From Candidatus Doudnabacteria bacterium (GTDB lineage: Bacteria; Patescibacteriota; Doudnabacteria; UBA920; O2-02-FULL-48-8): a DNA stretch of 64,000 bases. The number at the start of each line of letters is the position of its first letter. Positions within the stretch are counted from its first letter, which is position 1. Location: positions 66,214-130,213 of the forward strand of contig JBDTSL010000001.1 in the NCBI GenBank assembly GCA_039931165.1. The letters run 5' to 3'. The notes below the pieces were generated by a model. The model was not told the DNA's origin. It was given only the letters and a program-made list of their open reading frames with translations, and did no database searches. The position numbers and the translations under genes were made by a program. Positions 8,321-63,396 of the stretch are shown in pieces.

Positions 8321-8397
8321 CTAGAAAACGTATAACGCATAACGCGAAACGTGTAACGTAAAAAAACATCTTAAAGTTTTACGTTCCAAATTACACG

Positions 8398-9675
8398 TTA
8401 CACGATTAAGAACCAAATTACCAGTATACCGGCTACGGTCATCAGGGCCGTGATCAGCCAGCCAAGTATTGTGACAAACGGATGATTGGTCCATTCCTTC
8501 ATGACCTTGCGGTCGGAAGACAAAAGCACGATCACACCGAGGATAAATGGCGAGATCAGGCCGTTAAGCACTGCCGAATAGATCAGCATCCTGATGACAT
8601 CCAAATGCAAAAAATTCATGGCAAGGCCGATGATCATGGAAACCGCGATCACTCCGTAAAAAGCATGGGCCTGCTTGAATTTCCGATATAGGCCTTCACG
8701 CCAGTGGAAACTTTCGGAAATAGCATATGACGAGGAACCGGCCAGAACCGGAACCGCCAAAAACCCGGTTCCTAGGATCCCCAAAGTAAACAAAAGGTAA
8801 GACATCCGGCCGGCCAGTGGCTTGAGAGCGGCTGCCGCTCCTGCCGCATCCTTGATGTCGGTCATTCCGTGAGAAAAAAGCGTGGCCGCGCAGACGGCGA
8901 TGATAAAAAACATAACAAGGTTGGATAAAAACATTCCTCCCCAGACATCCACGCGCATTCGGCGGATGTCCTCGGGCGAAGTTTCAATTTCGCGTTTTTT
9001 TATCGTCGTTTTCCCCTCCATGATCTGCTCTTCCACTTCCTGCGAAGTTTGCCAGAAAAAAAGATATGGTGAAATAGTCGTTCCCAACACCGCGATGAGC
9101 AGGATCAAAGATTGTTTGTTAAAGATAATTGTCGGAACAATCAGATGTTTAAGCGCATCTGCCCAGTCAATGCGCACGATCAGTCCGGATAAAACATAAG
9201 AAAGCAAAGTTAATGCCAGCCATTTCAAAACTCTGGCATAAGATTTATACGCCGTAAAAATCTGCAGATATAAACTTATGACCGCAAACCCGATCACCAG
9301 CACCGAAAAATTTATGGGTACCAACAGCCGCAAAGCTTCGGCCATGATACCCAGATCCGCTCCGATATTGAATGTATTGGCGATGAACAATAACCCGGCG
9401 CAGGTATACAAAACCCATTTGGAATTATGCCGGCCAATAGCGCCAGCCAGCCCCCGTCCGGTCACAACCCCGATGCGCGCGCACATCTCCTGAACGATGG
9501 CCATCAGCGGAAATGTCAGCAGAGCTGTCCATAAAAAATTAAACCCATACGCGGCCCCCGCCTGTGAATAAGTAGCGATCCCTGACGGGTCATCATCGGC
9601 GGCGCCGGTGGTCAACCCAGGCCCGAGCATGTTCCAGTAGTCGTACACGCTCCGCCTGTTCTCACTTTTCGCCAT
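8398..9675 (-). CDS. mntH: Nramp-family divalent metal (Mn2+/Fe2+) transporter
   Basis: GPGLTTGAADDDPSGIATYSQAGA Nramp signature and about 11 TM segments. Confidence 0.85.
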   Translation of the reverse strand: MAKSENRRSVYDYWNMLGPGLTTGAADDDPSGIATYSQAGAAYGFNFLWTALLTFPLMAIVQEMCARIGVVTGRGLAGAIGRHNSKWVLYTCAGLLFIANTFNIGADLGIMAEALRLLVPINFSVLVIGFAVISLYLQIFTAYKSYARVLKWLALTLLSYVLSGLIVRIDWADALKHLIVPTIIFNKQSLILLIAVLGTTISPYLFFWQTSQEVEEQIMEGKTTIKKREIETSPEDIRRMRVDVWGGMFLSNLVMFFIIAVCAATLFSHGMTDIKDAAGAAAALKPLAGRMSYLLFTLGILGTGFLAVPVLAGSSSYAISESFHWREGLYRKFKQAHAFYGVIAVSMIIGLAMNFLHLDVIRMLIYSAVLNGLISPFILGVIVLLSSDRKVMKEWTNHPFVTILGWLITALMTVAGILVIWFLIV

Positions 9676-12835: not shown

Positions 12836-12965
12836 ACCTTATAAACCTTCAGCGAGGTCTGTTGAAAAATTAGCCTTCACAGGCCGACCTTAGTCGGCCG
12901 AGAACGCAGGCTGCGAAATTTAATGAATTTCGACAGCCGATAATTTTTCAATCAGACCGAGCGCA

Positions 12966-13766: not shown

Positions 13767-13780
13767 AAAAAGTACATAGA

Positions 13781-13843
13781 GAGGTAGTACGTAGTAGGTA
13801 GTTTTTTCTACCTACTACCTCCCTACGTACTACTCACTACCTC
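13781..13843. repeat. GTAG-rich imperfect palindrome (GTAGTACGTAG ... CTACGTACTAC; GTAGTAGGTAG-T6-CTACCTACTAC) in the mreB-mreC spacer
   Basis: 11-bp inverted repeat pairs seen directly. Shares the 11-mer CTACGTACTAC and the 12-mer GTAGGGAGGTAG with the element at 23173-23247. Confidence 0.6.
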
Positions 13844-14895
13844 GGTATTTGTTCAAACTCTGTCAGCACCAGAACTTCTTTCAGGCTTTCCAGATCCTCG
13901 AGCACAATTCCAGTGCCCCGCACCACCGCAGTCAAAGGATCATCGGCAACCTGGACCGGCATCTGGGTTTCGTCGGCGATCATCCGGTCTAGGCCGCGCA
14001 GCAGCGCTCCGCCGCCCGCAAGCGTGATGCCCCGCTCCATGATGTCGGCTACGAGCTCGGGCGGGGTTTCTTCCACCACCGACTTGATGTTATTCACGAT
14101 CATGCGCACGGAGCGGGACAGTGCAAGCCTGATCTGCTCATCAGACACAATCACTTCTTTCGGAAGTCCTGTGACCAGGTCGCGGCCCCGGATGTGGGTT
14201 TTCATCCGCTCTTTGATCGGAATCGCCGAGCCTATCCTGATCTTCACTTCTTCCGCAGTGCGCTCGCCGACCAGCAGATTGAATTCATCGCGGGCAAACT
14301 GGATGATATTCTCGTTCATTTCATCACCGGCCACTCGGATACTGCGGGAAACCACTATGCCTCCAAGGGAAATTACCGCTATCTCCGAAGTTCCTCCGCC
14401 GATATCCACGATGAAAGAACCTTGAGGGTCCTGCACGGGCAAGCGAGCGCCGATTGCCGCGGCCATGGGCTCTTCGATCAGAAAAGCCATCCGGGCGCCG
14501 GCATTAAGCGTGGCGTCCTGCACCGCCCGCTTTTCGACTTCCGTCACCCCTGACGGAATGCCTATCACCACCCGAGGCCGGGAGAGAAATCCCAAAGCCG
14601 CCTGGTTTACTTTATCGATAAAATACCTCAGCATCTGCTCGGTGACTTCGAAATCGGAAATAACACCGTCCACTAAAGGCCGGTGGGCCACGATATGCGC
14701 GGGGGTGCGGCCGACCATGCGCTTGGCTTCATCGCCGATAGCCAGGATCTGCTTGGTTTTTTGGTTGATCGCCACAACTGACGGCTCATTAATAGCAATA
14801 CCCTTGCCTTTAACATAAACAAGGGTATTGGCCGTGCCCAGATCAATTCCTATGTCTTTGGAGAACTTGTCGAACACAAAATCGAGGATAGCCAT
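13837..14895 (-). CDS. mreB: Rod shape-determining actin homolog MreB
   Basis: IGIDLGTANTLVYV phosphate-1 motif, DIGGGTSEIAV and family-wide similarity. Confidence 0.9.
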   Translation of the reverse strand: MAILDFVFDKFSKDIGIDLGTANTLVYVKGKGIAINEPSVVAINQKTKQILAIGDEAKRMVGRTPAHIVAHRPLVDGVISDFEVTEQMLRYFIDKVNQAALGFLSRPRVVIGIPSGVTEVEKRAVQDATLNAGARMAFLIEEPMAAAIGARLPVQDPQGSFIVDIGGGTSEIAVISLGGIVVSRSIRVAGDEMNENIIQFARDEFNLLVGERTAEEVKIRIGSAIPIKERMKTHIRGRDLVTGLPKEVIVSDEQIRLALSRSVRMIVNNIKSVVEETPPELVADIMERGITLAGGGALLRGLDRMIADETQMPVQVADDPLTAVVRGTGIVLEDLESLKEVLVLTEFEQIPR

Positions 14896-15055
14896 TTGTC
14901 ATCTTCCTAAATAATTGCAGCTGGAGGGGCAGAGAGGTGGATCAAGAATTAAAGGAATCGGTACGGTTTGTTTTATTTAATTTTTTATGTTTGATTTTCT
15001 AAATTGTCGGTTAAATTTTATTTAATTGTAATGAATTTTTATTGACTGTAAATTT

Positions 15056-16513
15056 TTAATATGATTGCGCGAATAACCATCGCCGTGAGGCATTTTTTCC
15101 GCACGCAAAGCATTTTAAATCTTCTTTTTTGTTTATCAATTCTAGTTCCAAAACCCGGGGAGTGGCTTTGGTGTCGGCTTTCACCCTGGCCTCGCAGTCG
15201 GGCTGTTCGCACCAGGGTACGCGGATAAAGGCCTTTTTCTCTTCAAGAATTCTTTTAAACTCGTGGATTTCGCTGGCCTCAAATGTCAGGGCTTTTTTGT
15301 TGTCATCCGATTTCTTATAGAGATCTTTTTGGATCAAATCCAGCATATCGCTTACCGATTTGTCTATTCCTTCGGCTTTCATCTGCCCTTTTTCAAAGTT
15401 ATCCCTGCGAACGTATTGGACAGTTCCGGCTTCCAGCTCCTTACCGCCAATCTCTAATCTTAGAGGCACGCCCTTCAGCTCCCAGTCATTGATGCGGAAA
15501 CCAAGGGAAGACTTAAAATTATCGTCCAGCTCGGCTCTGATATCTTTAGTCATGAGCATGCTCATGACTTTTTGCGCAAACTTAACCACAGCTTCCTGGA
15601 CTTTGGGGTCTTTATTTGATATCGGCAATATCACTACCTGCACCGGAGCGATCTTCGGCGGCAAAACCAGGCCCGAGTCGTCGCCGTGGGTTAGGATCAA
15701 TCCGCCCACGGCCCGGGTTGAAAATCCCCAGGAAGTCTGATGCACAAACTGTTTTTCGCCTTTTTCGTCGAGATATTGCACATTGAAAACTTTTCCAAAT
15801 TTCTCGCCCAGATAATGCGACGTTGCGGCCTGCAAGGCCTTACCATCAGGCATGACAAGTTCTATGGCGTAAGTTTCCACCGCTCCGGCAAAAGTCTCAC
15901 CCCGGCTTTTCAATCCGACATACAGGGAGATGCCGTAATATTCTTCGTAGAATTTTTTATACCACCCCAGCGCTGTCAAAACCATTTTCATGGCGTCCGC
16001 GCGGTCGGCATGAGCAGTGTGCCCCTCCTGCCATAAAAATTCGGAGGTCCGAAGGAACGGGTAGGTCCGCTTTTCCCATCGAACGATATTGCACCATTGG
16101 TTCAGTTTCATGGGAAGATCGCGGTGGCTATGTATCCATTCGGCGAATTTTTGCGTGATCACGGTTTCCGAAGTCGGCCTTACAGCCAGAGGCTCGGCTA
16201 ACTTTTCCCCGCCTCCAATAGTCACCACGGCCAGTTCCGGCGAAAATCCTTCGACGTGTTCCTTTTCTTTCTGAAACAAGCTCATCGGAATAAAGATCGG
16301 GAAGTATACGTTTTGCACGCCGCCTTCCTTGAACCACGAATCCAAAACAGCCTGGGCTTTTTCCCAAATCGCATAGCCGCGGGGCCTGATGATCATGCAA
16401 CCTTTTACATCAGAGTATTCAGCGAGTTCGGCACGCAAAACAACATCATGATACCAATCAGAAATATTTTCTGATTTTTTGGTCAGCCCCTTTTTTTCAA
16501 ATGATTTGGTCAT
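15056..16513 (-). CDS. proS: Prolyl-tRNA synthetase, archaeal/eukaryotic type
   Basis: Class II motifs and a C-terminal Zn-binding CxxC...CxxC tail typical of archaeal-type ProRS. Start chosen at MTKSFEK; an alternative ATG lies at 16534. Confidence 0.85.
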   Translation of the reverse strand: MTKSFEKKGLTKKSENISDWYHDVVLRAELAEYSDVKGCMIIRPRGYAIWEKAQAVLDSWFKEGGVQNVYFPIFIPMSLFQKEKEHVEGFSPELAVVTIGGGEKLAEPLAVRPTSETVITQKFAEWIHSHRDLPMKLNQWCNIVRWEKRTYPFLRTSEFLWQEGHTAHADRADAMKMVLTALGWYKKFYEEYYGISLYVGLKSRGETFAGAVETYAIELVMPDGKALQAATSHYLGEKFGKVFNVQYLDEKGEKQFVHQTSWGFSTRAVGGLILTHGDDSGLVLPPKIAPVQVVILPISNKDPKVQEAVVKFAQKVMSMLMTKDIRAELDDNFKSSLGFRINDWELKGVPLRLEIGGKELEAGTVQYVRRDNFEKGQMKAEGIDKSVSDMLDLIQKDLYKKSDDNKKALTFEASEIHEFKRILEEKKAFIRVPWCEQPDCEARVKADTKATPRVLELELINKKEDLKCFACGKNASRRWLFAQSY

Positions 16514-16519
16514 GTGCCA

Positions 16520-16548
16520 ATTATAGCAGTTCACCGCAGGCTTGACAA
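16520..16548 (-). promoter_or_regulatory. Sigma70-like promoter for proS (TTGTCA-17-TATAAT); the -10 ends 6 nt before the ATG, suggesting a leaderless mRNA
   Basis: The minus strand reads TTGTCAagcctgcggtgaactgcTATAATtggcacATG. Confidence 0.45.
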
Positions 16549-16570
16549 AACTGTCAAAAAAGCGTATAGT
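16542..16570 (+). promoter_or_regulatory. Opposing sigma70-like promoter (TTGACA-17-TATAGT) sharing the palindromic -35 region TTGACAAAACTGTCAA
   Basis: The plus strand reads TTGACAaaactgtcaaaaaagcgTATAGT. The only plus-strand material downstream is ~100 nt of non-coding sequence ending in a T-run at ~16682. Confidence 0.3.
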
Positions 16571-16689
16571 TGATAGTCAGTAGCAATTCGCACTGGCCCA
16601 AAACCAACGTTACAGGAGAATAGCAGGAGAATATATGTCGAGGAAAGGTCATTTCGACGGCAGCAAGCATCTCGGGGTCTTTTTTTTGC

Positions 16690-17808
16690 CTAAAATATCC
16701 TTTCAAACAAATTTTTAAATTGCGTACTATAATGTCCTACGTCTTTTACCGTCACCAAAACCATCAGCAGGAGCAATAATACAAATCCCGCGGTGTTCGC
16801 CCACTGCTCGGCCATGATCGGCAATTTTTTTCTGCGGATTTTTTCAATTAACAAAAACAATATCCGCCCGCCGTCCAGCGCCGGGAACGGCACGGCATTG
16901 ATGATGGCCAAATTCGCTGACAGCACCGCTGTGAATTGCAGGATATAAATGAAACCGAGAGCCGTCACGTCTTTGGTCAGCACCGCGATTCCGACCGGCC
17001 CGGAAAGAGCGGCTGTGACAGGCTGACCATGCAAAAATTGTCCGATAATGCCCGCGAAAGCGGTAAGAGTAAAGGACATCAAATTATACGTGGCAACCGC
17101 GCCCTTATATGGCGCCTGATACCAAGGATAAGAAACATAAGCTACGCTTCCTAGTGCGATACCGAGCGCGCCTTCTCCCGCTGGAGGGTTAGCCCTGGGC
17201 GTGATGATCTTGTCAATTACATCTGTTCCTCTTTTTATAGTAAATGTTGTCGGCTGGCCGGCATCGGCCGAGGTTTGTGTTTGCATATCCTGGATCGAAC
17301 TCACCGGTTTGCCGTTGATCTTCAGGATCGAATCGCCTGGTTTAAGACCGGCAGCCGCGGCTGGAGTTTTATCCCCAACCTCCAGAATTCCTATGGTCTG
17401 ATTTTTTATATGCGCGGATGCGGGCAGTTGCTCTCCTTCGTCGATGACTGTCGGTAGCCCCAGGCCCATGCCGATCGAGATCAAAACCCAGGCCAAAATC
17501 ACGTTCATGGTCACCCCGGCGATCAAAACCGAAAATCTGCGCCAAAAACTTTTGTTGCCGAAACTTTCAGGGTCAATGGAATCTGTGCCGTCCTCGCCCA
17601 AAATTTTTACAAATCCGCCCAAAGGGATCCAATTTATCGAGTAAAGCGTCTCGCCTTTTTTTATCCCAAACAGGCGAGGAGGAAATCCAAAACCGAATTC
17701 TTCGACCCTCATCCCGGCCCTTTTTGCCATTATGAAATGCCCCAGCTCGTGTACGAACACCAGGAGGCCGAGAATTATTATAAAAACTAAAATTGCTAGT
17801 AAAATCAT
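16690..17808 (-). CDS. rseP: RIP metalloprotease RseP (site-2 protease, M50 family) with a PDZ domain
   Basis: HELGHFIMAKR HExxH in the first TM, a central PDZ domain and a C-terminal LDGG motif. Confidence 0.85.
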   Translation of the reverse strand: MILLAILVFIIILGLLVFVHELGHFIMAKRAGMRVEEFGFGFPPRLFGIKKGETLYSINWIPLGGFVKILGEDGTDSIDPESFGNKSFWRRFSVLIAGVTMNVILAWVLISIGMGLGLPTVIDEGEQLPASAHIKNQTIGILEVGDKTPAAAAGLKPGDSILKINGKPVSSIQDMQTQTSADAGQPTTFTIKRGTDVIDKIITPRANPPAGEGALGIALGSVAYVSYPWYQAPYKGAVATYNLMSFTLTAFAGIIGQFLHGQPVTAALSGPVGIAVLTKDVTALGFIYILQFTAVLSANLAIINAVPFPALDGGRILFLLIEKIRRKKLPIMAEQWANTAGFVLLLLLMVLVTVKDVGHYSTQFKNLFERIF

Positions 17809-17829
17809 AAATAGATTATAGGTTATAAA

Positions 17830-18387
17830 CTATATTGTTAAAACTTCCTTCTCTTTAGCGTCCGCTATTTTTTTGATCTGTTCGTTATATTTATCGACGA
17901 CAGCCTGCAGTTCCTCCTTGCCTGAAATCTTATCATCCTCGGAAATCTTTCCGTCTTTTTCAAGTTTCTGGATCTCTTTCCAGATCTCTTCGCGGACATT
18001 CCGCACAGCCACGCGGGCTTTCTCGCTCATTTGGGACACGACTTTCACCAGTTCCTTTCTTCTTTCCTCGGTCATTTGAGGAATGATCAGCCGGATAAAA
18101 CTTCCGTCATTGACGGGATTGATCCCCAAATTGGATGCTTGCACGGCTTTTTCGATATCTTTCAAAGCGTTCTTGTCATAAGGCTGAATCGTGATCATGC
18201 GCGGTTCAGGCACCGCGATCTGAGCCATGTGCATCACGGGGGTGGGCACGCCGTATGATTCCACCATTAAATTTTCGACCAGTCCGGCAGAAGCGCGTCC
18301 GGTGCGGAGCGAAGACAGTTCGTTTTTCATATATTCCAAGGCTTTGGCAAAGTCCGGTTCTTTTTTACTGACTATATCTGTATCCAT
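17830..18387 (-). CDS. frr: Ribosome recycling factor
   Basis: Aligns over its full length to Frr (…LRTGRASAGLVENLMVESYG…). Start chosen at MDTDIVSK. Confidence 0.9.
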   Translation of the reverse strand: MDTDIVSKKEPDFAKALEYMKNELSSLRTGRASAGLVENLMVESYGVPTPVMHMAQIAVPEPRMITIQPYDKNALKDIEKAVQASNLGINPVNDGSFIRLIIPQMTEERRKELVKVVSQMSEKARVAVRNVREEIWKEIQKLEKDGKISEDDKISGKEELQAVVDKYNEQIKKIADAKEKEVLTI

Positions 18388-18391
18388 ATAA

Positions 18392-19516
18392 TTATTGGCC
18401 GGATGCCGATTGAGCAGGCCCCATTCCGGCATAAATATTATTATTGCTTTGCGGGTCCACTAAAATTGACCGGATACCGGCGTTTGTCGGCAAAACTTTG
18501 GTTTCCCAGCTCACTCCGCCGTTCAAACTTTTAAAAATAGTGGATGAGACGGCGACGAACAGATTGTTTGAGTTGCTCGGATTCACTGCCACCGCGTGAA
18601 CTCTGGTCGAGGAACTCCGTACCGGCAGGCTTAAAAAAGCCCAGCTGGCGCCGTCATTTACGGTCCGGAATAGTCCTTGATCCGTGCCTAAATATAGCAC
18701 TCCTGACTGTCTTTTATCCAGAGCCAGATCATAGAACGCGCCGGCTGAGACAGATGTTCGGTTGCGACTGCCCAAATTGTCGGTGGTGAAAGAGTTAGAG
18801 ACGGAACTCCAACTCGAACCCTGGTCGGAACTTTTTTCCACACCTTTGCGGGCAGTTAAGGCATAAACCGTCCCAGACGAACTGAATTTAATTTGAATGA
18901 TCCGGTCCGCAAAATCCGTGGTTGCCTGCCAAGCGTGGCCGCCGTCGGTGGATCTGATGATTTGACCCGAATTAAGGCCGGCCAGCACCAGCGACGGGTT
19001 GGTTTGCGAAACTGCGATTGCCAAAACCGTATTGTTTTTCGACGGTTCGGTATAAATGTCAACCCAGGAAGTTCCGCCGTCCAGGCTTTTTATGATCTTG
19101 CCGTTGGTGCCGACAATCCCCGAAGCGTAGAGATTATTAGCCTGAAACGGGTCGATGGCAATGTCCGCCGCAGCGATGCCTGATAAAATATAGCGCCAGG
19201 TTTTCGCGCCGTCATCCGATTTATATATCCCGCTTGATGCTGCCAGGTATAAAACGCTTGAATTGCCGGTGTCAAAAACCAGGGCATTGGCCGTAACTGT
19301 GCTGATGTCCCCTTTCTTTGCCATGACTTCAGCCGGCCTGAATGTTTCGCCGCTGTCCTCAGATTTAAAAACTCCCTGAGCTCCGCCGCCGCCAAAATCA
19401 AAAATACCGTTTACCAGATCACAGCTGGCCGCGGTCAGAGAAAGTCCCAAGATTAGGATTAAAAATTTTTTTCCGGCGAAGCCGGACCCCGCTTCGCGGG
19501 ACATTTCCTTTTTCAT
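18392..19516 (-). CDS. Secreted BNR/sialidase-like repeat protein (Ycf48-like beta-propeller)
   Basis: Signal peptide, then multiple S-x-D-x-G-x-T/S-W (BNR) repeats. Confidence 0.65.
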   Translation of the reverse strand: MKKEMSREAGSGFAGKKFLILILGLSLTAASCDLVNGIFDFGGGGAQGVFKSEDSGETFRPAEVMAKKGDISTVTANALVFDTGNSSVLYLAASSGIYKSDDGAKTWRYILSGIAAADIAIDPFQANNLYASGIVGTNGKIIKSLDGGTSWVDIYTEPSKNNTVLAIAVSQTNPSLVLAGLNSGQIIRSTDGGHAWQATTDFADRIIQIKFSSSGTVYALTARKGVEKSSDQGSSWSSVSNSFTTDNLGSRNRTSVSAGAFYDLALDKRQSGVLYLGTDQGLFRTVNDGASWAFLSLPVRSSSTRVHAVAVNPSNSNNLFVAVSSTIFKSLNGGVSWETKVLPTNAGIRSILVDPQSNNNIYAGMGPAQSASGQ

Positions 19517-20316
19517 GTATTCAACATTAAATTGGTCAGCAAAAGCTTGGCGTTCGCGTTCTGGTCCAGGAATCTGCGGGCCTGGGCGACCTGCGAAATC
19601 CTGTCAGCCAAAGCTTTTCCGGCTTTGGTCTGCAAAACAGCTTGCAGCTTTACCAGCCAGGTCTCAAGCAGGTTTTTTATTTCCGGGGTTTCCATATCCG
19701 CGATCTCATAGGCGGCTATCAATTTTTCCGGAAGGGTTGAACCTATGAAGGTTCGGTAAAAATTTTCACTTGTTACGTAAGTCTCCAAAAACTCCTTGTC
19801 GTCCGCCATTTTACGCGCCAACCCCGGTTTGCCGCCGGCTTTTTCAAATTCAGGGCCCGCTACCAAGCCAAAATTAATTTTCTGCGTGCGGGAAATAATA
19901 GTTTTCGGCAGGCGATTGGAATTGCCGGTGATGAGAATGATTATCGTGGAAGGCTTTGGTTCTTCCAGACACTTAAGCAACGCGTTAGCCGCTTCTTCAT
20001 TCAGATCCTCGGCATTGTCTATCAGCGCGACTTTGTATTTCGCCTGATAGGGCAGAAGCGATAATTTATAAACCAGCTCGCGTATTTGCTCGATAACGAT
20101 TACTTTCTTATCTTCCGGACGTTCGATTATCAATAAATCGGGATGAAAGTTATTCCCGTCTGCCTGCAGCAATTCCTGCGCCAGTCTTAAGGCCACGGTT
20201 CTTTTTCCCACCGAATCGGGCCCGGCAAAAGTGTAGGCGTGGGCAAGCCTATCTCGCTTGATCGCGTTTTCGAGGAATTCAAGTTGCTTTTTGTGTCCGG
20301 AAATATCTTCAAACAT
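19513..20316 (-). CDS. holB: DNA polymerase III delta-prime subunit (AAA+ clamp-loader)
   Basis: P-loop FAGPDSVGKRT and clamp-loader similarity. Start chosen at MFEDISGH. TATAAT lies 6 nt upstream of the ATG. Confidence 0.7.
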   Translation of the reverse strand: MFEDISGHKKQLEFLENAIKRDRLAHAYTFAGPDSVGKRTVALRLAQELLQADGNNFHPDLLIIERPEDKKVIVIEQIRELVYKLSLLPYQAKYKVALIDNAEDLNEEAANALLKCLEEPKPSTIIILITGNSNRLPKTIISRTQKINFGLVAGPEFEKAGGKPGLARKMADDKEFLETYVTSENFYRTFIGSTLPEKLIAAYEIADMETPEIKNLLETWLVKLQAVLQTKAGKALADRISQVAQARRFLDQNANAKLLLTNLMLNT

Positions 20317-20473
20317 GCTCAAATTATAGCACATATGGTACTCCGACGCTTCGGTCGAAGGCCCGACTTCCTTGAATATTAATAGTAGACGTCGGGGGCG
20401 GGGTTGACAAGAAGGCCTGCATAGCATACTATTACAAGTTGCACATTCCGTGCTAACTAAGGAGGAGATACGC

Positions 20474-20779
20474 TTGGCCAAAGCCAATTTCGCTATCAAT
20501 GGCAAGGAAGTGACAGTTCTCTTTCACATCCAAGATGGTAGCGACTCGGACTGTTTCTACTGTCATCTCGATGGGGCTGTCGAACAGCACGCAGTCACCG
20601 AGGAAGTTCACATGGAAGGCGTTAAGCTCAATCGAACCTCAAAACTGTACCATGAAGCTGAGACCAAGCTCAAACAGCTCATGTTCTCTGGCCGTTCGCT
20701 CCACGTGGGCAAATCCTGCGAAGACAAGTGGATCGAAGAATTTCATTCGCATCCGGGGATAATGATTAATACTCCCTAA
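20474..20779 (+). CDS. Hypothetical protein in a GC-rich island; C-terminus ends in an FHSHPG motif reminiscent of JAB/MPN metalloenzymes but truncated
   Basis: TTG start in frame 9 nt after a strong SD (AAGGAGG). Local GC is clearly higher than the flanks. Confidence 0.4.
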   Translation: MAKANFAINGKEVTVLFHIQDGSDSDCFYCHLDGAVEQHAVTEEVHMEGVKLNRTSKLYHEAETKLKQLMFSGRSLHVGKSCEDKWIEEFHSHPGIMINTP

Positions 20780-20964
20780 GTTTCAGCCTCCGAATCCGTT
20801 AGCAAAACGGGAAAATGAGTGAATTCACTCAAGAGCAAATTGTTTTGTCAAAGCAACTGCTCAAGACTGAGTCGCTCAAGCGGTAACGCCTTATCAGCGT
20901 TCCCCCGGATACAGCTGTCGCTGTGTTCCGATTCCCGTTCGCTGACGCGAACAGGAGGTGCTCC

Positions 20965-21285
20965 ATGGCCGATCAGCATCACGTCCCCGCCAACCTGAAT
21001 ATGTTCAGGATGGATCTGAGTACAGCTCGTATCATCTCCATGGAATCGTTCCATAGAAATGGTGCCGGTCCGCTCTCAGATTACTATCCGCAGGGTCGCG
21101 ACGACATCCGCTTGGTTCTCGAACCAAGCATTGTCATAGCCACTCCTTCGGAACGGGGACGCGCCCACGTTCGTACGGTTGCTCTCAGCGAAGCAATTCG
21201 CTTTGAAACCAACCGTGGACTCTCTGACTCAATCGCCTGGGTCAGGGATCCGAACGGGTTGTGGTGCCGTCTGAGGCTTCTCTAA
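20965..21285 (+). CDS. Hypothetical protein in the GC-rich island
   Basis: ATG preceded by AGGAGG. Followed by a weak stem-loop and T-run (~21338-21370). Confidence 0.4.
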   Translation: MADQHHVPANLNMFRMDLSTARIISMESFHRNGAGPLSDYYPQGRDDIRLVLEPSIVIATPSERGRAHVRTVALSEAIRFETNRGLSDSIAWVRDPNGLWCRLRLL

Positions 21286-21476
21286 GCCCAGGCCGGCGCT
21301 TCACGCGCAAACTGACCGATTGGGCAGTCACCCGATCACCCCGACAACACTCTGTGTTGTTGGGTTTTTCTTTTGTCTGAATAAACAAAAATCAGCAAGT
21401 CTTTTCGAGTTGATCGTGCAACAGATTTGCGACGTTTCAACTGGACTTACTGATTCTTTTCTAAACGTTTAGTAGG

Positions 21477-21620
21477 CCCAGTATATCAACTTCGATAAAT
21501 GGCCGTTTCGCTTTTGCGCTTAAGTAAAATTAAACTCACAATTTTATGGTGGCAGACGATCTAGCTTTGATCGAGTCGGCCATTTGAACGCAAATGCGAT
21601 CGAAGTTGTATTACTGGGTA
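21477..21620. repeat. Large imperfect palindrome (~30-40 bp arms around a ~70 bp centre) in non-coding DNA
   Basis: CCCAGTAtatCAACTTCGATaAAATGGCCG pairs with CGGCCATTT...ATCGAAGTTGtatTACTGGG. A second arm pairing cgcttttgcg/cgcaaatgcg is also present. Confidence 0.45.
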
Positions 21621-21773
21621 GGCTTAACCTCAATCATCTTAAGATGTCCTAAAATTTGCGTCAAAAAAAATAAAAATCCGCGTAAATGCTCGGGTTTATT
21701 ATCGGATAGTGGACAATGTGTGGTTAATGCGGGGAGAAGCTGTTATATTTAATCAATTAATTTAAATACAAAC

Positions 21774-22008
21774 GTAAAAACCACCTTGCGGTGATTTTTA
21801 TTGAACCGGTGTGCTGTCGGATCCGCTAACTTCACCCTTACGGATTCCATTAGCCTGGGAATTGGTCCGAGAGGTTGCCCTTGCTCGTTCTTAACCGGAG
21901 TCGTTTCTTACTCCAGCGTACCAATTCGGATTCAACAGTGCCTGATCCTTCGAGCAGCCTTTTAGAGCCGTCCGCTTGATGAGGATTGCTCCTCACCAAG
22001 ACCATGGT
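21774..22008 (-). ncRNA. Candidate structured small RNA (~235 nt), bounded by a promoter and an intrinsic terminator; identity unknown
   Basis: Near-consensus promoter upstream. 3' hairpin AATCACCGCAAGGTGGTT plus T5. Internal hairpins are capped by GNRA loops (TGAGGA-GCAA-TCCTCA; CGAGcaAGG-GCAA-CCTCTCG). Partial resemblance to RNase P RNA motifs (GTAAGGGTGAA; GACAGcACaCCGG). Confidence 0.35.
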
Positions 22009-22014
22009 GAAAGC

Positions 22015-22043
22015 ATTATAGAAATAGAAATTATTCCGGTCAA
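22015..22043 (-). promoter_or_regulatory. Sigma70-like promoter (TTGACC-17-TATAAT) driving the candidate sRNA
   Basis: The minus strand reads TTGACCggaataatttctatttcTATAAT. Confidence 0.45.
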
Positions 22044-22164
22044 GCAAAATAAAAAATCTCTGAAAACCTAAGCAATCTTAATGATTTTATATAAATTGTG
22101 AATAACCTGTGTCTAACCTGCGGATTATCTGTTGAAGTAAAAAAGGCTAATCAGTTTTTAAAAT

Positions 22165-23172
22165 CTACTTGCTGGCCAAAATGCTTTTTTTATAGCTTTC
22201 CAGATTATCCAAAGCCACGCCTGTGCCTTTGACCACGCAGAGAATCGCGTCGTCGGCCACATATGCCGGAACACCAGTCGCCTGGCCGATCAATTTATCC
22301 AAATTCTTGAGCAGAGCCGTGCCGCCGGTCAGGACCATGCCTTTGTCTATGATGTCGGCAGCGAGCTCGGGCGGTGTCTCCTGGAGCACTGATCTTATGG
22401 CTTTGATAATTTCCCGCAGTTCTTCCTGGATCGCTTCCACGATCTCGTTGGTGGAAACCTGTATAGTCTTCGGCAGACCCTGGATCATGTCCCGGCCGCG
22501 GATCTCTATCGTGGTCTCTTTCTCCACCGGTAGGGCGGACCCGATCTTGATTTTTATCTCTTCGGCCGTCCTGTCTCCCACAGCCAGACCGTGTTTTTTC
22601 TTAATGTAATCCGCTATCGCCTGGTCCATTTTGTTCCCGGCCACCCGAACCGAGGTCTGGGTGACAATCCCGCCCAGCGACAAGATCGCGACGTCCGTGG
22701 TCCCTCCGCCCATATCAATGACCATGTTGCCGGACGGTGTGGCGATGTCAATGCCGGCGCCAATCGCCGCCGCCACGGTTTCTTTTATCACAAAGGCGGC
22801 TTTTGCACCCGCTGCCTGGGCCGCGTCGATCACCGCGCGCCTTTCGGTAGAGGTAATGCCGCCCGGCACCGAAATCATGACTTCCGGCCGAAAAAACCGG
22901 ACATTGCCCACGGTTTTATTTATAAAATAACGGAGCATGGCTTCGGTCACGCGGTAATCGGCGATCACTCCGTCCTTCATCGGCCTGTGCGCCACGATCG
23001 TATCGGGTGTGCGCCCGAGCATTTCTTTGGCCTCAGCTCCCACTGCCATGATCCGGTTATCAATAACCGAAATAGCCACGACTGTCGGCTCGTTGATGAC
23101 AATGCCTTTTTTGGGAACATATACCAAAGTATTGGCTGTGCCCAGATCAATTCCGATTTTTTTTAAAAACAT
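22165..23172 (-). CDS. Second MreB-family actin homolog (MreB/Mbl paralog)
   Basis: IGIDLGTANTLVYV, DMGGGTTDVAI. Clear paralog of the mreB at 13837-14895. Confidence 0.85.
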   Translation of the reverse strand: MFLKKIGIDLGTANTLVYVPKKGIVINEPTVVAISVIDNRIMAVGAEAKEMLGRTPDTIVAHRPMKDGVIADYRVTEAMLRYFINKTVGNVRFFRPEVMISVPGGITSTERRAVIDAAQAAGAKAAFVIKETVAAAIGAGIDIATPSGNMVIDMGGGTTDVAILSLGGIVTQTSVRVAGNKMDQAIADYIKKKHGLAVGDRTAEEIKIKIGSALPVEKETTIEIRGRDMIQGLPKTIQVSTNEIVEAIQEELREIIKAIRSVLQETPPELAADIIDKGMVLTGGTALLKNLDKLIGQATGVPAYVADDAILCVVKGTGVALDNLESYKKSILASK

Positions 23173-23247
23173 AAAATTAGTAGATAGTTAGATAGTAGGT
23201 AGGGAGGTAGACATCTACGTACTACCTATCTACGTACTACTTACTTG
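23173..23247. repeat. GTAG-rich imperfect palindrome upstream of the second mreB (GTAGGTAGGGAGGTAG; CTACGTACTAC x2; GTAGACATCTAC)
   Basis: Shares an 11-mer and a 12-mer with the mreB-mreC spacer element. Confidence 0.6.
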
Positions 23248-24498
23248 TTATTCTATTCTCTTAATCTCCGCTCCCAATTTACTTAATCTTTCTTCCAATT
23301 TCTCATACCCGCGGTCAATGTGATGGATGTCCGAAATTTCAGACTGGCCGGAAGCTGCCAACGCCGCAATGACCATGGTCATGCCCATTCGGATGTCGTA
23401 GCTTGTCATTTTAGCACCTTTCAGGGCTGTCGGGCCAATAATTTTTACCCGGTGCGGGTCCAGGATCTCGGCATTGGCCCCCATTTTTTTCAGCTGCTCT
23501 ACGTAGCCCAGGCGGTTTTCGTAAAGCCACTCATAGATCAGGGATTCGCCTGAAGCCTGTGTCGCCAGCACTGCCAGGGTCGGCATGTCATCGGACGCAA
23601 GCTTGGGATAAAGCCCGCACTGAATTTTGGCCCCGACATATTCGTCTGTGGGCGGCAAAACATGGACAAAATCCGGACCGATTTCAAAATTTACATTCAT
23701 TTTGGTAAGTTTAAGCAAAAAATCATCCATAAAATCCGGATTAAGCCCGCTGACTTTTATATCACTCTTTGTGGAGGCGGCCAGAGTGATAAAACCCGCG
23801 GCTTCGTTGGAATCGGGAATGAGGGAGATTTCCGCGCCATGTAGTTTTTTGACGCCCTCGACAACTACCGTCGTTGTTCCGATTCCTGTGATTTTCCCGC
23901 CCATCTTGTTAATGAATTCGCAAAGCTGTTGGACATGCGGCTCCATCGCTGCCAATTTGATCGTCGTTGTCCCCTCTGCCATACTTGCTGCCAAAATCGT
24001 GTTTTCGGTGGCAGTGACCGAGGATTCCTCCAAAACGATTTTATTGCCTACCAATTCCTGGGCCTGAAGCTCAATAAACCCATCCGTATGTGCGGATGCT
24101 CCGAGAGCTTCAAATGCCTTCAAATGAGCATCCACAGGCCTGCTGCCTATCAAATCCCCTCCGGGAAAAGTCATGCGGGCTTTATGTTTTCGGGCAAGCA
24201 AAGCACCCAGCAAAACAATCGAACCCCGCATTTTGGATGTGAACTCGGAGTTAAGCTCGCTTTTTTTTAAATTGCCGGCTGTAATAGAGACCGAATGATC
24301 GGAAGCTTTCACTTCTGCTCCAAGTTCTTTGATCAGCTCGAGCATTACTTCTTTGTCCTTGATTTCCGGAACATTGGTAAACCGGCAAGCTTCTTCGGTA
24401 AGAAGCGCTGCCGCAAAAAGCGGAAACACCGCGTTCTTTGAACCGGATACCTTGATTTCTCCGGTTAATTTTCTTCCGCCGTTGATAACAAATTTCAT
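23248..24498 (-). CDS. murA: UDP-N-acetylglucosamine 1-carboxyvinyltransferase
   Basis: Family-wide similarity; 416 aa. Confidence 0.9.
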   Translation of the reverse strand: MKFVINGGRKLTGEIKVSGSKNAVFPLFAAALLTEEACRFTNVPEIKDKEVMLELIKELGAEVKASDHSVSITAGNLKKSELNSEFTSKMRGSIVLLGALLARKHKARMTFPGGDLIGSRPVDAHLKAFEALGASAHTDGFIELQAQELVGNKIVLEESSVTATENTILAASMAEGTTTIKLAAMEPHVQQLCEFINKMGGKITGIGTTTVVVEGVKKLHGAEISLIPDSNEAAGFITLAASTKSDIKVSGLNPDFMDDFLLKLTKMNVNFEIGPDFVHVLPPTDEYVGAKIQCGLYPKLASDDMPTLAVLATQASGESLIYEWLYENRLGYVEQLKKMGANAEILDPHRVKIIGPTALKGAKMTSYDIRMGMTMVIAALAASGQSEISDIHHIDRGYEKLEERLSKLGAEIKRIE

Positions 24499-38886: not shown

Positions 38887-39000
38887 AATAAAAAAATCCT
38901 AATATCTAAACTCTAAATCCTAAATAATATCCAAGCGCCAATTTTTCGAATTTTTAAAACCTTGGGATTTGTCATTTATTTAGAGTTTAGGATTTATGAT

Positions 39001-39210
39001 TTAAAACTTCACACCCGCTGTTAATATATCCCACAGGCCCGGCAATTGCGCTTTGTTGTTTTTGAGGGTGCAAAGCGCGTAGGCTAGATGGTAATTACAA
39101 CTCATTCCGCCTTTGGCCGTGATATTTTTCAGGCCGTGCCAATATAAAAATCCCAATACGACTACTACGGCCAAAATAATTTTTGTACCCCATTTTTTCC
39201 GAAAACGCAT
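39001..39210 (-). CDS. Small hypothetical membrane protein (69 aa)
   Basis: N-terminal TM helix; sits just downstream of paralog D. Confidence 0.35.
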   Translation of the reverse strand: MRFRKKWGTKIILAVVVVLGFLYWHGLKNITAKGGMSCNYHLAYALCTLKNNKAQLPGLWDILTAGVKF

Positions 39211-51853: not shown

Positions 51854-51940
51854 GTCACTATTATAACCTAAAATCTTGGTTTAACAAAAAGCCGCCTTTC
51901 GGCGGCTTCTACTTTCTATTTTCTACTTGCTATTTTCTAA

Positions 51941-53239
51941 TTAAAAATCCTCGTAATCTCTCATTACCATCTGGGCCTGGACCTGCTTCATAACTTCGAT
52001 CACCACGGATACCACGATCAGAAGAGATGTTCCGCCCAATGTCAGCGATTGGCTGTGGGTAAATGCCTGGACAATGTTCGGCAGAACCGCGATCAGGCCC
52101 AGGAAAATGGCGCCAACCAAGGTGATGCGGTTCAGAACTTTATACAAAAATTCCGCGGTCTGAAACCCGGGGCGCAGTCCCGGAATAAATCCGCCTTGTT
52201 TCTGGATATTTTCGGAGATTTCTTCGGGATTGAATACGATGGCGGTATAGAAGTAAGTGAAAGCCACGACCAAAATAAAATATATGATGCCCTGGTAGGT
52301 CTGGTTCTGGAAAAAATTATTGATGGCGGTAGCGGCGTGGGCGACAAACTCAGTCTTGGCATTGGAAAAGAAATTGGCGATAAGACCCGGAAAAAGCAAA
52401 ATGGAAATGGCAAAAATTATAGGGATCACCCCGGCTTGGTTTACTCTCAGCGGCAAATGAGTATTCACTCCGCCGTACATTTTATTGCCTCGGATCCTTT
52501 TCGCATAAGATACGGGGATATTCCTTTGAGCTTCGGTGATCAGTACAACTCCGCCGATGACCACCGCGGCCAACGCCACATAAGATAGCGCTGTGATCAG
52601 ATTCTGAGGGCTGATGGCCGAACCCGAGCCAGATAGGCTCAAATACGCCTGTTGCACCACGGTCGGAAGCCGAGCTACTATCCCGGCAAAAATGATCAGG
52701 GAAATACCGTTGCCGATTTTGAATTCGGAAATCATCTCGCCCAGCCAGAGCAGGATCATGGTACCAGTGGTAACGGAAAGCAAAGTCACAAACCATTGAA
52801 ATGGCGAAAAACCAGACGTAATATCGATGTTGCTGGTGCGAGAAAGCAAAATAATCGTGCCATATGCCTGGATCGGGGTCAAAGGAACTGTCAAATAACG
52901 CATGTACTGGTTGATCTTCATGCGTCCGGCCTCTCCCCCTTCTTTGGACAGCTCACCGAGCTTCGGAATGATGATCGTCAGCAGCTGGATGATGATCGAA
53001 GCGGTGATGTATGGTCCCACGCCGAGCATGACAATGGAAAAATTACGCAGTCCGCCTCCGGAAAAAATATCGAATAATCCCAGCAGCTGGTTGGTGTTCA
53101 GCAAAGCCCGTAAATTCGTCACGTCTATCCCGGGGATCGGAATGTGGGCAAGAACTCTGGTCGCGACCAAAAGCAGAGCCACGAAGATGATCCTGTTGCG
53201 AAGCTCTTTAACTTTCCAGATTTGAGAAATCCTAGACAT
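51941..53239 (-). CDS. secY: Preprotein translocase subunit SecY
   Basis: 10-TM SecY family similarity. Confidence 0.95.
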   Translation of the reverse strand: MSRISQIWKVKELRNRIIFVALLLVATRVLAHIPIPGIDVTNLRALLNTNQLLGLFDIFSGGGLRNFSIVMLGVGPYITASIIIQLLTIIIPKLGELSKEGGEAGRMKINQYMRYLTVPLTPIQAYGTIILLSRTSNIDITSGFSPFQWFVTLLSVTTGTMILLWLGEMISEFKIGNGISLIIFAGIVARLPTVVQQAYLSLSGSGSAISPQNLITALSYVALAAVVIGGVVLITEAQRNIPVSYAKRIRGNKMYGGVNTHLPLRVNQAGVIPIIFAISILLFPGLIANFFSNAKTEFVAHAATAINNFFQNQTYQGIIYFILVVAFTYFYTAIVFNPEEISENIQKQGGFIPGLRPGFQTAEFLYKVLNRITLVGAIFLGLIAVLPNIVQAFTHSQSLTLGGTSLLIVVSVVIEVMKQVQAQMVMRDYEDF

Positions 53240-53304
53240 AAATTAGGTTATAGGTTATAGGTTATAGGTTGTAGCCGGTTGAGCTATAACCTATCACCTA
53301 AAAC

Positions 53305-54761: not shown

Positions 54762-55343
54762 TTATTTCGCTCCCACGGCCTTCACGACTTTGCCGGCTTT
54801 GCGTCTGATGACCTCATCCGAATATTTAATACCTTTGCCTTTATAAGGCTCCGGTTGCCGGTGAGAACGCACAACCGCGGCAAATTGCCCGACCGCCTGG
54901 CGGTCAGAGCCCGTGATGGTAATCGTGTTTTTCTCGACTTTCGCTTCCAGCCCCTGCGGCACTTCCATTTCGATCGGGTGAGAATAACCCAGATTTAAAA
55001 CCAATTTTTTTCCGGAAATCGCCGCCTTATACCCCACACCGTTGATCTCCAAAATTTTTGTAAACCCGGTGGTGACCCCGACGATCATATTGTTGATCAG
55101 TGCCCGGAACAGTCCCCACAAGGCACGCTGCTGTTTATTCTCACTATCGCCTACGCTAACCAGCACTTCCGAGTCTTTTTGTTCGACTTTAACTTTCGGA
55201 TGCAACGCCAAACTCAGCTCTCCTTTAGGTCCTTTGACTTGCAGGATTGAGTCCTTTCCGCCGGAGGCGGATCCGCCTTCGGCGGAGATGTCAACTGTGA
55301 CACCCGCGGGCACTGGAATTGGTTTTTTTCCTATTCTGGACAT
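54762..55343 (-). CDS. rplF: 50S ribosomal protein L6
   Basis: Family similarity. Confidence 0.9.
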   Translation of the reverse strand: MSRIGKKPIPVPAGVTVDISAEGGSASGGKDSILQVKGPKGELSLALHPKVKVEQKDSEVLVSVGDSENKQQRALWGLFRALINNMIVGVTTGFTKILEINGVGYKAAISGKKLVLNLGYSHPIEMEVPQGLEAKVEKNTITITGSDRQAVGQFAAVVRSHRQPEPYKGKGIKYSDEVIRRKAGKVVKAVGAK

Positions 55344-55378
55344 AGTTTTTTAATCTTTAATCTAAAATCTTTAATCCT

Positions 55379-55777
55379 CTACCACACCTGGCAGACAACC
55401 TCGCCGCCAATCTTGTTTTGGCGCGCTTCCTTATCCGTCATTAATCCTTTCGAGGTTGAAATGATCGTGGTGCCGATGCCTCCCATGACTTTCGGGATCT
55501 CGGTTCTGGCGGAGTAAATCCTCTGTCCGGGTTTGCTGACACGCTTGATCCCTGAAATCACAGGCAGTCCGGTCTCGTCATATTTGAGTTCCAACAACAA
55601 GCTTTTGAAACCATCGGTCTCCTTGACTTCCACTTTCTTGATATAACCTTCAGAATGCAAAACCTTGGCCAAATTATGCTTAAAATTCGAATAGGGCAAA
55701 ACCACGTCCGGTTTGCGTGCCATCAGGCCGTTGCGGATGCGGGTCAACATATCGGAAATTGTATCGGTCATGGTCAT
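55379..55777 (-). CDS. rpsH: 30S ribosomal protein S8
   Basis: Start chosen at MTMTDTISDMLTRIRN; the ORF-track GTG start at 55789 lies inside the repeat element. Confidence 0.9.
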   Translation of the reverse strand: MTMTDTISDMLTRIRNGLMARKPDVVLPYSNFKHNLAKVLHSEGYIKKVEVKETDGFKSLLLELKYDETGLPVISGIKRVSKPGQRIYSARTEIPKVMGGIGTTIISTSKGLMTDKEARQNKIGGEVVCQVW

Positions 55778-57363: not shown

Positions 57364-57431
57364 AAGGGTGGAATATAGAATATGGAATGTGGATTATGGA
57401 TTTTTAAATCCTATATTCCAAATTCTAAATT

Positions 57432-57668
57432 CTACATTCTATTAATTACTTTCCAGCTAACTGTCTTACTATAGGGCTTTGATTCTTCGATTACAACTTT
57501 GTCGCCAACGGAGAATTCCGTATCAGCGTGAGCCGGAAATTTTTTGAAAACCTTATAGCGCTTGTGATATTTCGGGTGGACTTTTACAATTTCAACCTTA
57601 ACTACCACAGTCTTGTTCATCTTGTTGGAGGTTACGGTGCCGGTTAATTTTCTCTTGATAGTTTCCAT
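57432..57668 (-). CDS. rpsQ: 30S ribosomal protein S17
   Basis: Family similarity. Confidence 0.9.
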   Translation of the reverse strand: METIKRKLTGTVTSNKMNKTVVVKVEIVKVHPKYHKRYKVFKKFPAHADTEFSVGDKVVIEESKPYSKTVSWKVINRM

Positions 57669-60771: not shown

Positions 60772-61224
60772 TTAGACTCCTTCGCTCAATCCTGCGATCC
60801 GCTCGCCTGACTTTAATGTTACGATCGCTTTCTTCCAATCCTGGGTCCGGCCTACTGATTTTCCTTGTCGACGGTTTTTACCTGAGACATTAATCATATT
60901 GACCGCCATAACGTGCACATCATATACTGCCTCGATCGCTTTTTTTACTTCGATCTTATTAGTAGATTTGGCGACTTTGAATACATAGCGGCCTATGGCT
61001 GAAAGCTGGTTGGTTTTTTCCGACAAATGATGGCGAAGCAGGATATGGTGGGCCCGGCCGGTGTTTTCCTTAAGAATTGCTTTTTGTTCAGCAGTTTTTT
61101 CCTCAGCCGGTTCTTTGACCATATCTAAAACATTCTCTTCCTTAGGAGCTTTTTTTCCGGCGGAGCCGGATCCGGCTTTGCCGGACTTTTCATCTTTCTG
61201 TTTAAATCTGTCTAGGATTCCCAT
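60772..61224 (-). CDS. rplW: 50S ribosomal protein L23, possibly with an N-terminal ~50-aa extension
   Basis: The L23 core begins near HHILLRHHLSEKTN. The true start is uncertain; an internal Met is possible. Confidence 0.8.
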   Translation of the reverse strand: MGILDRFKQKDEKSGKAGSGSAGKKAPKEENVLDMVKEPAEEKTAEQKAILKENTGRAHHILLRHHLSEKTNQLSAIGRYVFKVAKSTNKIEVKKAIEAVYDVHVMAVNMINVSGKNRRQGKSVGRTQDWKKAIVTLKSGERIAGLSEGV

Positions 61225-61248
61225 ATTCTATATTCCAAATTCTATATT

Positions 61249-63244: not shown

Positions 63245-63396
63245 AATTTTGGCTAAAGAAAAGCCGCTTAGATCTCGGAAAGCTTCAGAAACCTAAGCGG
63301 TTCTTCTTTCGTGATCGTCGTTGTCCTTTCGGACCTGCACAATCTTAACTATTGATTTTTTTCTATAACCTACAACCTACCACCTACAACCTGTTT

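Follow-up and report, generated by a model that had tools for sequence, protein, structure and literature searches.

A 64-kb stretch of a Candidatus Doudnabacteria genome (Patescibacteria; contig JBDTSL010000001.1), referred to here as the window, carries two paralogs of the actin-homolog gene mreB, and beside each of them lies a short imperfect palindrome built from GTAG units. We call these elements R1, located between mreB1 and mreC, and R2, located between a murA-like gene and mreB2 (Table 1). The best explanation, to which we assign a probability of roughly 60%, is that R1 and R2 are paralogs, two copies of a palindromic intergenic repeat of short period that is specific to this lineage and arose at the DNA level, and that they are not operators of the mreB genes. 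They would then belong to a class of arrays with a period of about 7 nt that occupy co-directional gaps of this genome and, patchily, of other Patescibacteria.

R1 and R2 as copies of one element

All genes in the region of R1 and R2 are on the minus strand, and each element takes up the entire gap between a stop and a start codon, so that both are presumably transcribed. The preliminary description of this DNA had pointed to the 11-mer CTACGTACTAC and the 12-mer GTAGGGAGGTAG as common to both sites, and in the 64 kb the two words were indeed found only there. The 11-mer is present in exactly four copies (at 13784 on the minus strand, and at 13823, 23215, and 23230 on the plus strand) and the 12-mer in two (at 13815 on the minus and 23199 on the plus strand), counts that none of 100 shuffled sequences reached. 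With one mismatch allowed, two more copies of the 11-mer appear, at 13791 (minus) and 13808 (plus). The same description had placed the words in each orientation, which holds for R1, whereas in R2 both lie on the plus strand only. The imperfect palindromes of GTAG units are present as described, with GTAGTAGGTAG-T6-CTACCTACTAC at 13791-13818 in R1 and GTAGACATCTAC at 23207-23218 in R2, and the two spacers are the only dense GTAG/CTAC clusters in the window. The rarity of GTAG in the window is due to a depletion of TA and TAG, as judged from trinucleotide composition; a specific avoidance of GTAG was rejected, the observed/expected ratio under a Markov model being 1.4. Each unit adds 3-4 nt to the GTAG core, so that the mean period is ~7.5 nt. 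In R1 the unit lengths run 7-8-7 and the best lag is 7 (14/21 matches), while R2 contains the 15-nt (7+8) unit GTAGTACGTAGATAG twice and matches itself at 17/21 positions at lag 15 and at 12/21 at lag 7. The Logan contig L001, the product of a separate assembly, matches R1 at 100% identity over its whole length, so that this element is not an assembly artefact of the present record.

When placed in the same orientation, R1 and R2 can be aligned from end to end, with 54 of 71 columns identical (76%). The alignment score of 53 (z 16.8) compares with a best score of 34 in 2,000 shuffles, and the collinearity takes in the order of the spacers between the units and the common ...TACT(AA)TTTT-ATG end. 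From this end-to-end match in one orientation we conclude that the two are paralogous copies. Two independent low-complexity GTAG arrays could in principle share words by chance, since a single 4-nt core in both would make some shared words expected, and 1 of 3,000 synthetic GTAG-unit palindromes did reach the observed score. However, the same simulation puts the unit-level null at ~3e-4, and chance sharing of words would have to account for a z of 16.8 and for collinearity over 71 columns, spacer order and TTTT-ATG end included; we therefore give such convergence hardly any credence. The close likeness of R1 and R2, together with a weaker likeness to other periodic arrays of the genome, supports the earlier suggestion that they form a second small repeat family.

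The sense strand of R1 is predicted to fold at -35.8 kcal/mol (z -5.96), and none of 200 shuffled sequences was as stable. Its predicted outer stem pairs 13813-13831 with 13771-13789 (19 bp, 2 of them G-U) and its inner stem 13808-13811 with 13791-13794; the hairpin begins 5 nt past the UAG stop and closes 4 nt ahead of the AUG. The predicted fold of R2 is less stable (-21.5 kcal/mol, z -2.5), with a 5' arm at about 23215-23245 and a 3' arm at about 23179-23210 forming an interrupted 24-bp stem. The antisense strand of R1 folds at -27.4 kcal/mol, and the advantage of the sense strand is due to the two G-U pairs. Among 13 elements, the sense strand folded better in 7 and the antisense strand in 6, giving no sign of selection at the RNA level. 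Although this is a weak test, such parity indicates that palindromes arising in DNA fit better than structures selected in RNA.

According to the preliminary description, neither hairpin is followed by a T-run. This is correct for the plus strand, but the transcribed strand reads UUUUU-AUG after R1 and AAUUUU-AUG after R2. An intrinsic terminator would have a compact, GC-rich stem with a short loop and a U-tract straight after it. While U5 and AAUUUU do follow the two hairpins, both stems are of considerable length, AU/GU-rich, and broken by interruptions, a scan with a terminator consensus flagged neither R1 nor R2, and a U-rich stretch ahead of the AUG is common in this genome generally. In the window as a whole, a Shine-Dalgarno-like motif precedes very few start codons, and the upstream sequence is A/U-rich and often ends in ...UUUU-AUG, which suggests that initiation is largely Shine-Dalgarno-independent. 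The GGGAGG in R1 was rejected as a Shine-Dalgarno sequence, as it lies ~45 nt from the mreC AUG, is on the opposite strand in R2, and belongs to a genome largely without such motifs. Scans of the window with Rfam 15 and for tRNAs gave no match, in the case of Rfam at the gathering score. Below that threshold, the R1 region (13773-13842) resembled only let-7 (27.4 bits on one strand and 24.7 on the other; gathering score 53.5) and mir-968 (24.5 bits; gathering score 88). We regard these as chance resemblances; the let-7 match can be traced to the likeness of GAGGUAGUAGGU to the let-7 seed region.

Arrays with a period of 7 nt and their turnover

The window contains at least eight further elements of the same build as R1 and R2, consisting of arrays of ~7-nt units, often with inverted arms that form a hairpin (Table 1). 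All ten elements, R1 and R2 included, sit at co-directional junctions, in the stop-to-start gaps of ribosomal-protein and other operons. At lag 7, the eight sister elements show 15-17 or more matches out of 21. R1 and R2 have in common with them the location, the size, the filling of the gap from stop to start, and periodic arms made of short units. The closest relative of R1 other than R2 is the array after the S10 gene (alignment z 5.4), which in turn aligns with the L15-secY element at a z of 9.4, and the L4-L23 array aligns with the S17-L14 element at a z of 11.2. Most arrays of this window contain TAG or CTA when inspected by eye, but a universal TAG/CTA core was rejected, as there was no enrichment across Patescibacteria (28/105 versus 22 expected). 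A DNA-uptake sequence was likewise rejected, by reasoning, as the unit sequences differ among elements. No transposase, Y1/RAYT transposases included, was found among the open reading frames (ORFs) of the window scanned with Pfam, and there was no target-site duplication. In 53305-54670 there are long plus-strand ORFs at 53363-54001 (scanned, no Pfam match) and 54008-54316, and these overlap minus-strand ORFs that resemble L15, S5, and L18 by translation and position. The TAGGTTA hairpin is therefore an L15-secY junction element and not a divergent-promoter element.

The preference for a period of 7 nt was quantified by counting segments with a self-similarity of at least 17/21 matches at a given lag. 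The window contains eight lag-7 segments, all of them intergenic although intergenic DNA makes up 9% of its length, compared to 0-1 segments at the other lags from 3 to 12. The 81 related loci (1.33 Mb) gave 59 segments at lag 7 versus 1-9 at other lags, and among 643 spacers 73 were positive at lag 7 and 43 at lag 14, with 6-20 at other lags. A control set of 707 kb of unrelated metagenome contigs showed no excess at lag 7. An inverted partner was found within 90 nt for 21 of 67 arrays, about one third. Thus, a period of 7 nt is strongly and specifically over-represented in the spacers across 80 Patescibacteria loci. In the literature searched, we found no description of such repeats for Patescibacteria.

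The content of a given junction differs between relatives. Neither CTACGTACTAC nor GTAGGGAGGTAG occurs in the mreB loci of 80 relatives (1.33 Mb), where a single weak GTAG-unit cluster (L038, position 14354) was the only element of the GTAG type. In L002 and L004, mreB and mreC are separated by about 3-8 nt, and in L211 the two genes overlap; in L003, L005, L008, L009, L205, L207, L208, and L210 the spacer holds periodic hairpins of 60-105 nt with sequences unrelated to R1. In none of the eight relatives read does the murA-mreB2 gap carry an element. It is 1 nt in L003, about 10 nt in L005, and 0-4 nt in L013, it is 20-62 nt and non-periodic in the more distant L006, L012, L016, and L018, and in L004 it is 414 nt and non-periodic by eye. 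An absence of the motif upstream of mreB in relatives had been named in the preliminary description as evidence that would speak against its own proposal, and both orthologous spacers proved to be empty or unrelated.

While the content of single junctions changes, sub-families recur within genomes and between species. The 24-mer CTATAACCTATCACCTAAAACCTA of the L15-secY element recurs with 24/24 identical positions at position 18047 of L009, which belongs to a different species and is not the orthologous site. Of the genome itself, we read the 64-kb window plus about 2 kb, and in this added part, ~2 kb past the window end (L203, 398-425), the array GTTATGGGTTGTAGGTGATAGGTTATAGAAAAAAAA of the TAGGT type stands straight after a gene. 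Its pattern is nearly identical to that of the S10-L3 array, so the TAGGT-type sub-family has further copies outside the window. A metagenome scan with CTACGTACTACCTNTC returned at least 120 matches, among which all were chance or CTAC-type microsatellites and none came from this genome.

Genes and other repeats of the window

Table 1. Coordinates of R1 and R2, the adjoining genes, and the sister elements in the window
Feature	Position	Strand	Remarks
R1, GTAG-unit palindromic element, 70 nt	13767..13836	-	Whole spacer from mreB1 stop to mreC start
R2, paralogous GTAG-unit palindromic element, 75 nt	23173..23247	-	Whole spacer from murA stop to mreB2 start
mreB1, 352 aa	13837..14895	-	Pfam MreB_Mbl, E 5e-144; 5' of R1 in the transcript
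mreC, 266 aa	12966..13766	-	Pfam MreC, E 2e-36; 3' of R1
murA-like gene	23248..24498	-	Pfam EPSP_synthase, E 3e-79; 5' of R2
mreB2, 335 aa	22165..23172	-	Pfam MreB_Mbl, E 7e-136; 3' of R2
Hairpin, ACGTTAC-type heptad arms	8323..8400	-	Straight after Nramp stop, Nramp-greA spacer
Long-loop hairpin, TTTAGGA-type heptad arms	38897..39014	-	Ends 10 nt (38887-38896) ahead of the fructose-bisphosphate aldolase (fba) start codon
Single-arm array, TAGAAAA-type units	51904..51943	-	Straight after secY stop (secY-adk), then canonical GC-hairpin and T-run
Hairpin, TAGGTTA heptad arms	53240..53304	-	Fills L15-secY spacer
Single-arm array, AGATTAA-type units	55343..55379	-	Fills 35-nt S8-L6 spacer
Hairpin, TAGAATT-type heptad arms	57364..57448	-	Fills S17-L14 spacer
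TAGAATA-type array	61219..61255	-	Spans 24-nt L4-L23 spacer and both coding ends
Single-arm array (GGTTGTA GGTGGTA GGTTGTA GGTTATA G)	63357..63397	-	Straight after S10 stop, S10-L3 spacer

The identification of both flanking genes as actin homologs (mreB) was confirmed by their matches to the Pfam family MreB_Mbl. MreB1 shares 83-90% identity with MreB of Candidatus Doudnabacteria genomes and ~52% with MreB2, and the orthologs of mreB2 in relatives are 88-94% identical and are placed straight after murA. For MreC, a 100% identical protein is recorded under this name in Candidatus Doudnabacteria, on an NCBI contig of 159.7 kb; no record of MreB2 was found. The mreC gene is followed by a candidate mreD, named by position and without a Pfam match, and then by a gene for a PBP2-type transpeptidase. 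Further 5' of the murA-like gene lies murB, recognized by its MurB_C and FAD_binding_4 domains (Pfam). Between mreC and the candidate mreD, the 130 nt of 12836-12965 are predicted to form a very stable structure (-56.6 kcal/mol), and at the mreC-mreD junction of L002 there is a 147-nt element, unrelated in sequence, whose terminal inverted repeats are long. Various kinds of hairpin insert seem to accumulate at the operon junctions of this clade. On the 3' side of mreB2, the 879 nt from 21286 to 22164 contain neither an ORF of 80 aa or more nor a tRNA, and no Rfam family reached its gathering score there; there are terminator-like hairpins at 21340-21364 (plus strand) and 21800-21775 (minus strand) and a promoter-like site with 11/12 matches at 22043-22015 (minus strand). 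This region could encode an unrecognized RNA.

Several other repeats were encountered in the window. One family has ends of ~22 nt, ACCCCCACACCA(A/T)AACGAGCTT, found at 48490-48636, 54619-54767, 55774-55923, and 62490-62641, where inverted pairs of the ends bracket inserts of 90-330 nt in spacers of the ribosomal-protein operon. The 62492-62641 spacer is predicted to fold from end to end at -45 kcal/mol. Near position 18085 of L009, a motif similar to these ends, CACCCCACACCC, adjoins a heptad array. The family looks like a miniature inverted-repeat transposable element. Another repeat, of ~49 nt, is GC-rich and consists of paired small hairpins (TTTTTTTCCGGCGAAGCCGGACCCCGCTTCGCGGGAC...); it is found at 19466-19514, 54646-54694, 55251-55299, and 61150-61198. 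At least three of these four copies fall within the 5' end of a gene (L6, L23, and one that is BNR/sortilin-like), where they may encode short low-complexity N-terminal insertions. Finally, 50700-51853 contains two tandem adenylate-kinase paralogs, and 33625-36724 contains tandem PsbP_2-like paralogs with 283-nt repeats that are 97% identical (34270-34552 and 35307-35589).

Known systems, competing explanations, and significance

Heptameric simple-sequence repeats are the most abundant class of long repeats in many bacteria, and polymerase slippage has been proposed as their origin (Mrazek 2007, as cited in PMC4679880 and PMC4692102). Heptamer arrays of G-rich units in intergenic DNA are known from Xanthomonas (GGGAATC) and Nostoc (GGGGA(T/C)T). 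They vary among close relatives and are inverted in some cases, and in Xanthomonas the arrays at the same junctions differ in length and sequence (PMC4692102). The arrays described here resemble these long simple-sequence repeats (LSSR) and short tandemly repeated repetitive (STRR) sequences, as known from the work of Mrazek, cyanobacteria, Xanthomonas, and Nostoc, in their ~7-nt units, their intergenic location, a period of 7 nt that is uniquely over-represented, the variation in length and sequence at one junction among relatives, and the occasional inversion that gives rise to stem-loops. As for membership in this group, the class shows both the restriction to non-coding DNA and the excess of period 7, and rapid change is evident at the mreB-mreC junction, where the spacer varies from 0-8 nt up to 60-105 nt among relatives. 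The arrays differ in that many unit sequences coexist in one genome, without one dominant unit, and that the units are imperfect, with mixed 7- and 8-nt units in R1 and R2. Moreover, the inverted hairpin layout is common, applying to about one third of the arrays, whole stop-to-start gaps are filled in very compact Patescibacteria operons, and the arrays are not G-rich and form no quadruplexes. A further comparison is with the TAACTGA arrays of marine Beggiatoaceae, which are located just upstream of start codons without a Shine-Dalgarno sequence, also in ribosomal-protein operons, and for which a post-transcriptional role has been proposed; 169 sets are direct and 1 is inverted (PMC4679880). 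Heptamer arrays ahead of start codons lacking a Shine-Dalgarno sequence, inside ribosomal-protein operons, are what we see as well, but unlike the one conserved and nearly always direct heptamer of Beggiatoaceae, the units here are diverse, the arrays are often palindromic, and several of them abut the upstream stop codon and not the start codon.

The repetitive extragenic palindromic (REP) elements and bacterial interspersed mosaic elements (BIME) of proteobacteria are found within operons, form species-specific families, and stabilize mRNA 3' ends, and REP elements typically carry a GTAG/CTAC head. R1 and R2, as short imperfect extragenic palindromes with GTAG/CTAC, present in at least two dispersed copies within operons, with species-specific sequence families and related sub-families scattered in the genome, might thus be taken for REP doublets (REPIN) mobilized by a REP-associated tyrosine transposase (RAYT, a Y1 transposase). 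We consider this very unlikely, as GTAG is here the repeating unit, iterated every 7-8 nt, instead of a single conserved head, and the arms are internally periodic. In addition, the sister elements use quite different units without GTAG, there are two copies in 64 kb, and the Pfam scan of window ORFs mentioned above detected neither a RAYT nor another transposase. The operator reading, proposed in the preliminary description as a shared site of both mreB genes, fares worse and is close to refuted. It supposes a palindrome-binding transcription factor that recognizes DNA containing GTAGTACGTAG and co-regulates the two actin-homolog genes, in keeping with the long exact words common to the two imperfect palindromes, the proximity of each to an mreB paralog, and a weak promoter-like site (9/12 matches) that ends at 23250, just 5' of R2. 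However, R1 is located 3' and not 5' of mreB1, within the mreB-mreC-mreD operon, and R2 lies inside the string murB-murA-mreB2. The orthologous murA and mreB2 genes of close relatives are 1-10 nt apart, from which it follows that they are co-transcribed and that there is no room for an operator. Furthermore, no relative has a GTAG-type sequence at either junction, and eight unrelated junctions of the window hold elements that are built alike but differ in sequence.

A more serious rival, and in part a complement, to the DNA-level explanation is that the hairpin after mreB is maintained by selection as a leaky terminator, a 3'-end stabilizer, or an RNase III site, with R2 acting likewise for murA and mreB2. 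R1 would then set MreB above MreC, MreD, and PBP2 and couple the translation of mreC to that of mreB, while the sequence drifts and the hairpin stays. An RNA-processing site was also among the proposals of the preliminary description; the predicted folds are stable in the operon transcript and such elements are enriched at mreB-mreC, while no strand asymmetry pointing to selection on RNA was seen. Such an attenuator or stabilizer is reasonable, although we judge it as a whole to be rather doubtful. In its favor, lag-7 arrays were found at 12 of 74 mreB-mreC junctions versus 41 of 940 other co-directional junctions of the same loci (odds ratio 4.2, Fisher p 2e-4), counts that depend on crude gene calls and phylogenetically non-independent loci and in which occupancy was judged by the lag-7 criterion only; a comparison of hairpin energies between junctions was unusable because the crude gene calls inflate spacer lengths. 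A periodic hairpin is present at mreB-mreC in 7 of 11 close relatives, with unrelated sequences. The predicted stem of R1 (19+4 bp, compared to an interrupted 24 bp in R2 when both are considered as RNase III hairpins) is followed by U5 on the sense strand, which is also the strand with the stronger predicted fold. In Legionella pneumophila, a terminator is annotated after mreB, and northern blots revealed a monocistronic mreB mRNA (PMC4630621). A stem-loop between mreB and mreC in an mreBCD cluster is thus common to both organisms, but R1 is a long, AU/GU-rich, periodic palindrome known from sequence, in contrast to the conventional, northern-supported terminator of Legionella, and R2 is at another junction. 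What argues against selection is that the sense strand has no steady advantage among the 13 elements, that like elements stand between ribosomal-protein genes with equimolar products, where unequal expression is not expected, and that L002, L004, and L211 have few or no nucleotides between mreB and mreC. Nor does any relative read carry an element at the R2 site, and the terminator scan passed over both R1 and R2. A bolder version of this idea is a selected, phylum-wide system of ~7-nt arrays that are either read by a protein recognizing short, periodically spaced motifs on RNA or on single-stranded DNA, much as HutP or TRAP would, or act as programmed attenuators. The mreB-mreC junction would be a preferred site that sets the stoichiometry of cell-shape proteins, and R1 and R2 would co-tune the MreB paralogs. 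We consider this improbable.

The explanation that we favor, DNA-level origin of a lineage-specific repeat, supposes that the elements arise and turn over as ~7-nt units slip, are duplicated in inverted orientation, and are copied from one site to another. Such turnover would account for two observations: sequence families are common to several sites of a genome and sometimes to several species, and relatives differ in the element that occupies a given junction. On this view, the link to mreB is twofold: elements of this kind recur at mreB-mreC, and murA-mreB2 carries a second, lineage-specific copy. In the predicted folds, the base of the hairpin sets the upstream stop and the downstream start codon a few nucleotides apart. 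For the upstream cistron (mreB1 or murA), the hairpin may act as a leaky terminator or as a barrier at the 3' end, and the downstream start codon (mreC or mreB2) may be reachable only on opening of the hairpin. A role as leaky terminator or mRNA stabilizer after mreB is, on these predictions, plausible.

Several points weigh against this explanation. The heptad periodicity of R1 and R2 is not clean: periods of 7, 8, 15, and 4 nt are mixed, both elements score below the lag-7 threshold (14/21 and 12/21), and their assignment to the class would follow from architecture, location, and weak sequence links. The count of the GTAG family comes from 64 kb plus ~2 kb and amounts to two copies, both of which adjoin an mreB paralog, a coincidence with a chance of ~0.03 by our own post hoc estimate over ~70 junctions. 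We infer the copying mechanism in a window that is without a transposase or target-site duplication, and the effects at the RNA level are those that the modeled folds would permit. The persistence and enrichment of periodic hairpins at mreB-mreC could also mean that there is selection for a function at this junction.

With these findings, the tempting inference of a regulator site shared by the two mreB genes is removed. What emerges are compact operons, in Candidatus Doudnabacteria and other Patescibacteria, that are peppered with fast-evolving hairpin repeats of ~7-nt units, including the ribosomal-protein super-operon. Should these hairpins influence termination, the decay of mRNA, or translational coupling, organisms with few regulators would have in them a cheap means of tuning expression within operons, and the recurrently occupied mreB-mreC junction offers a concrete place for testing such tuning.

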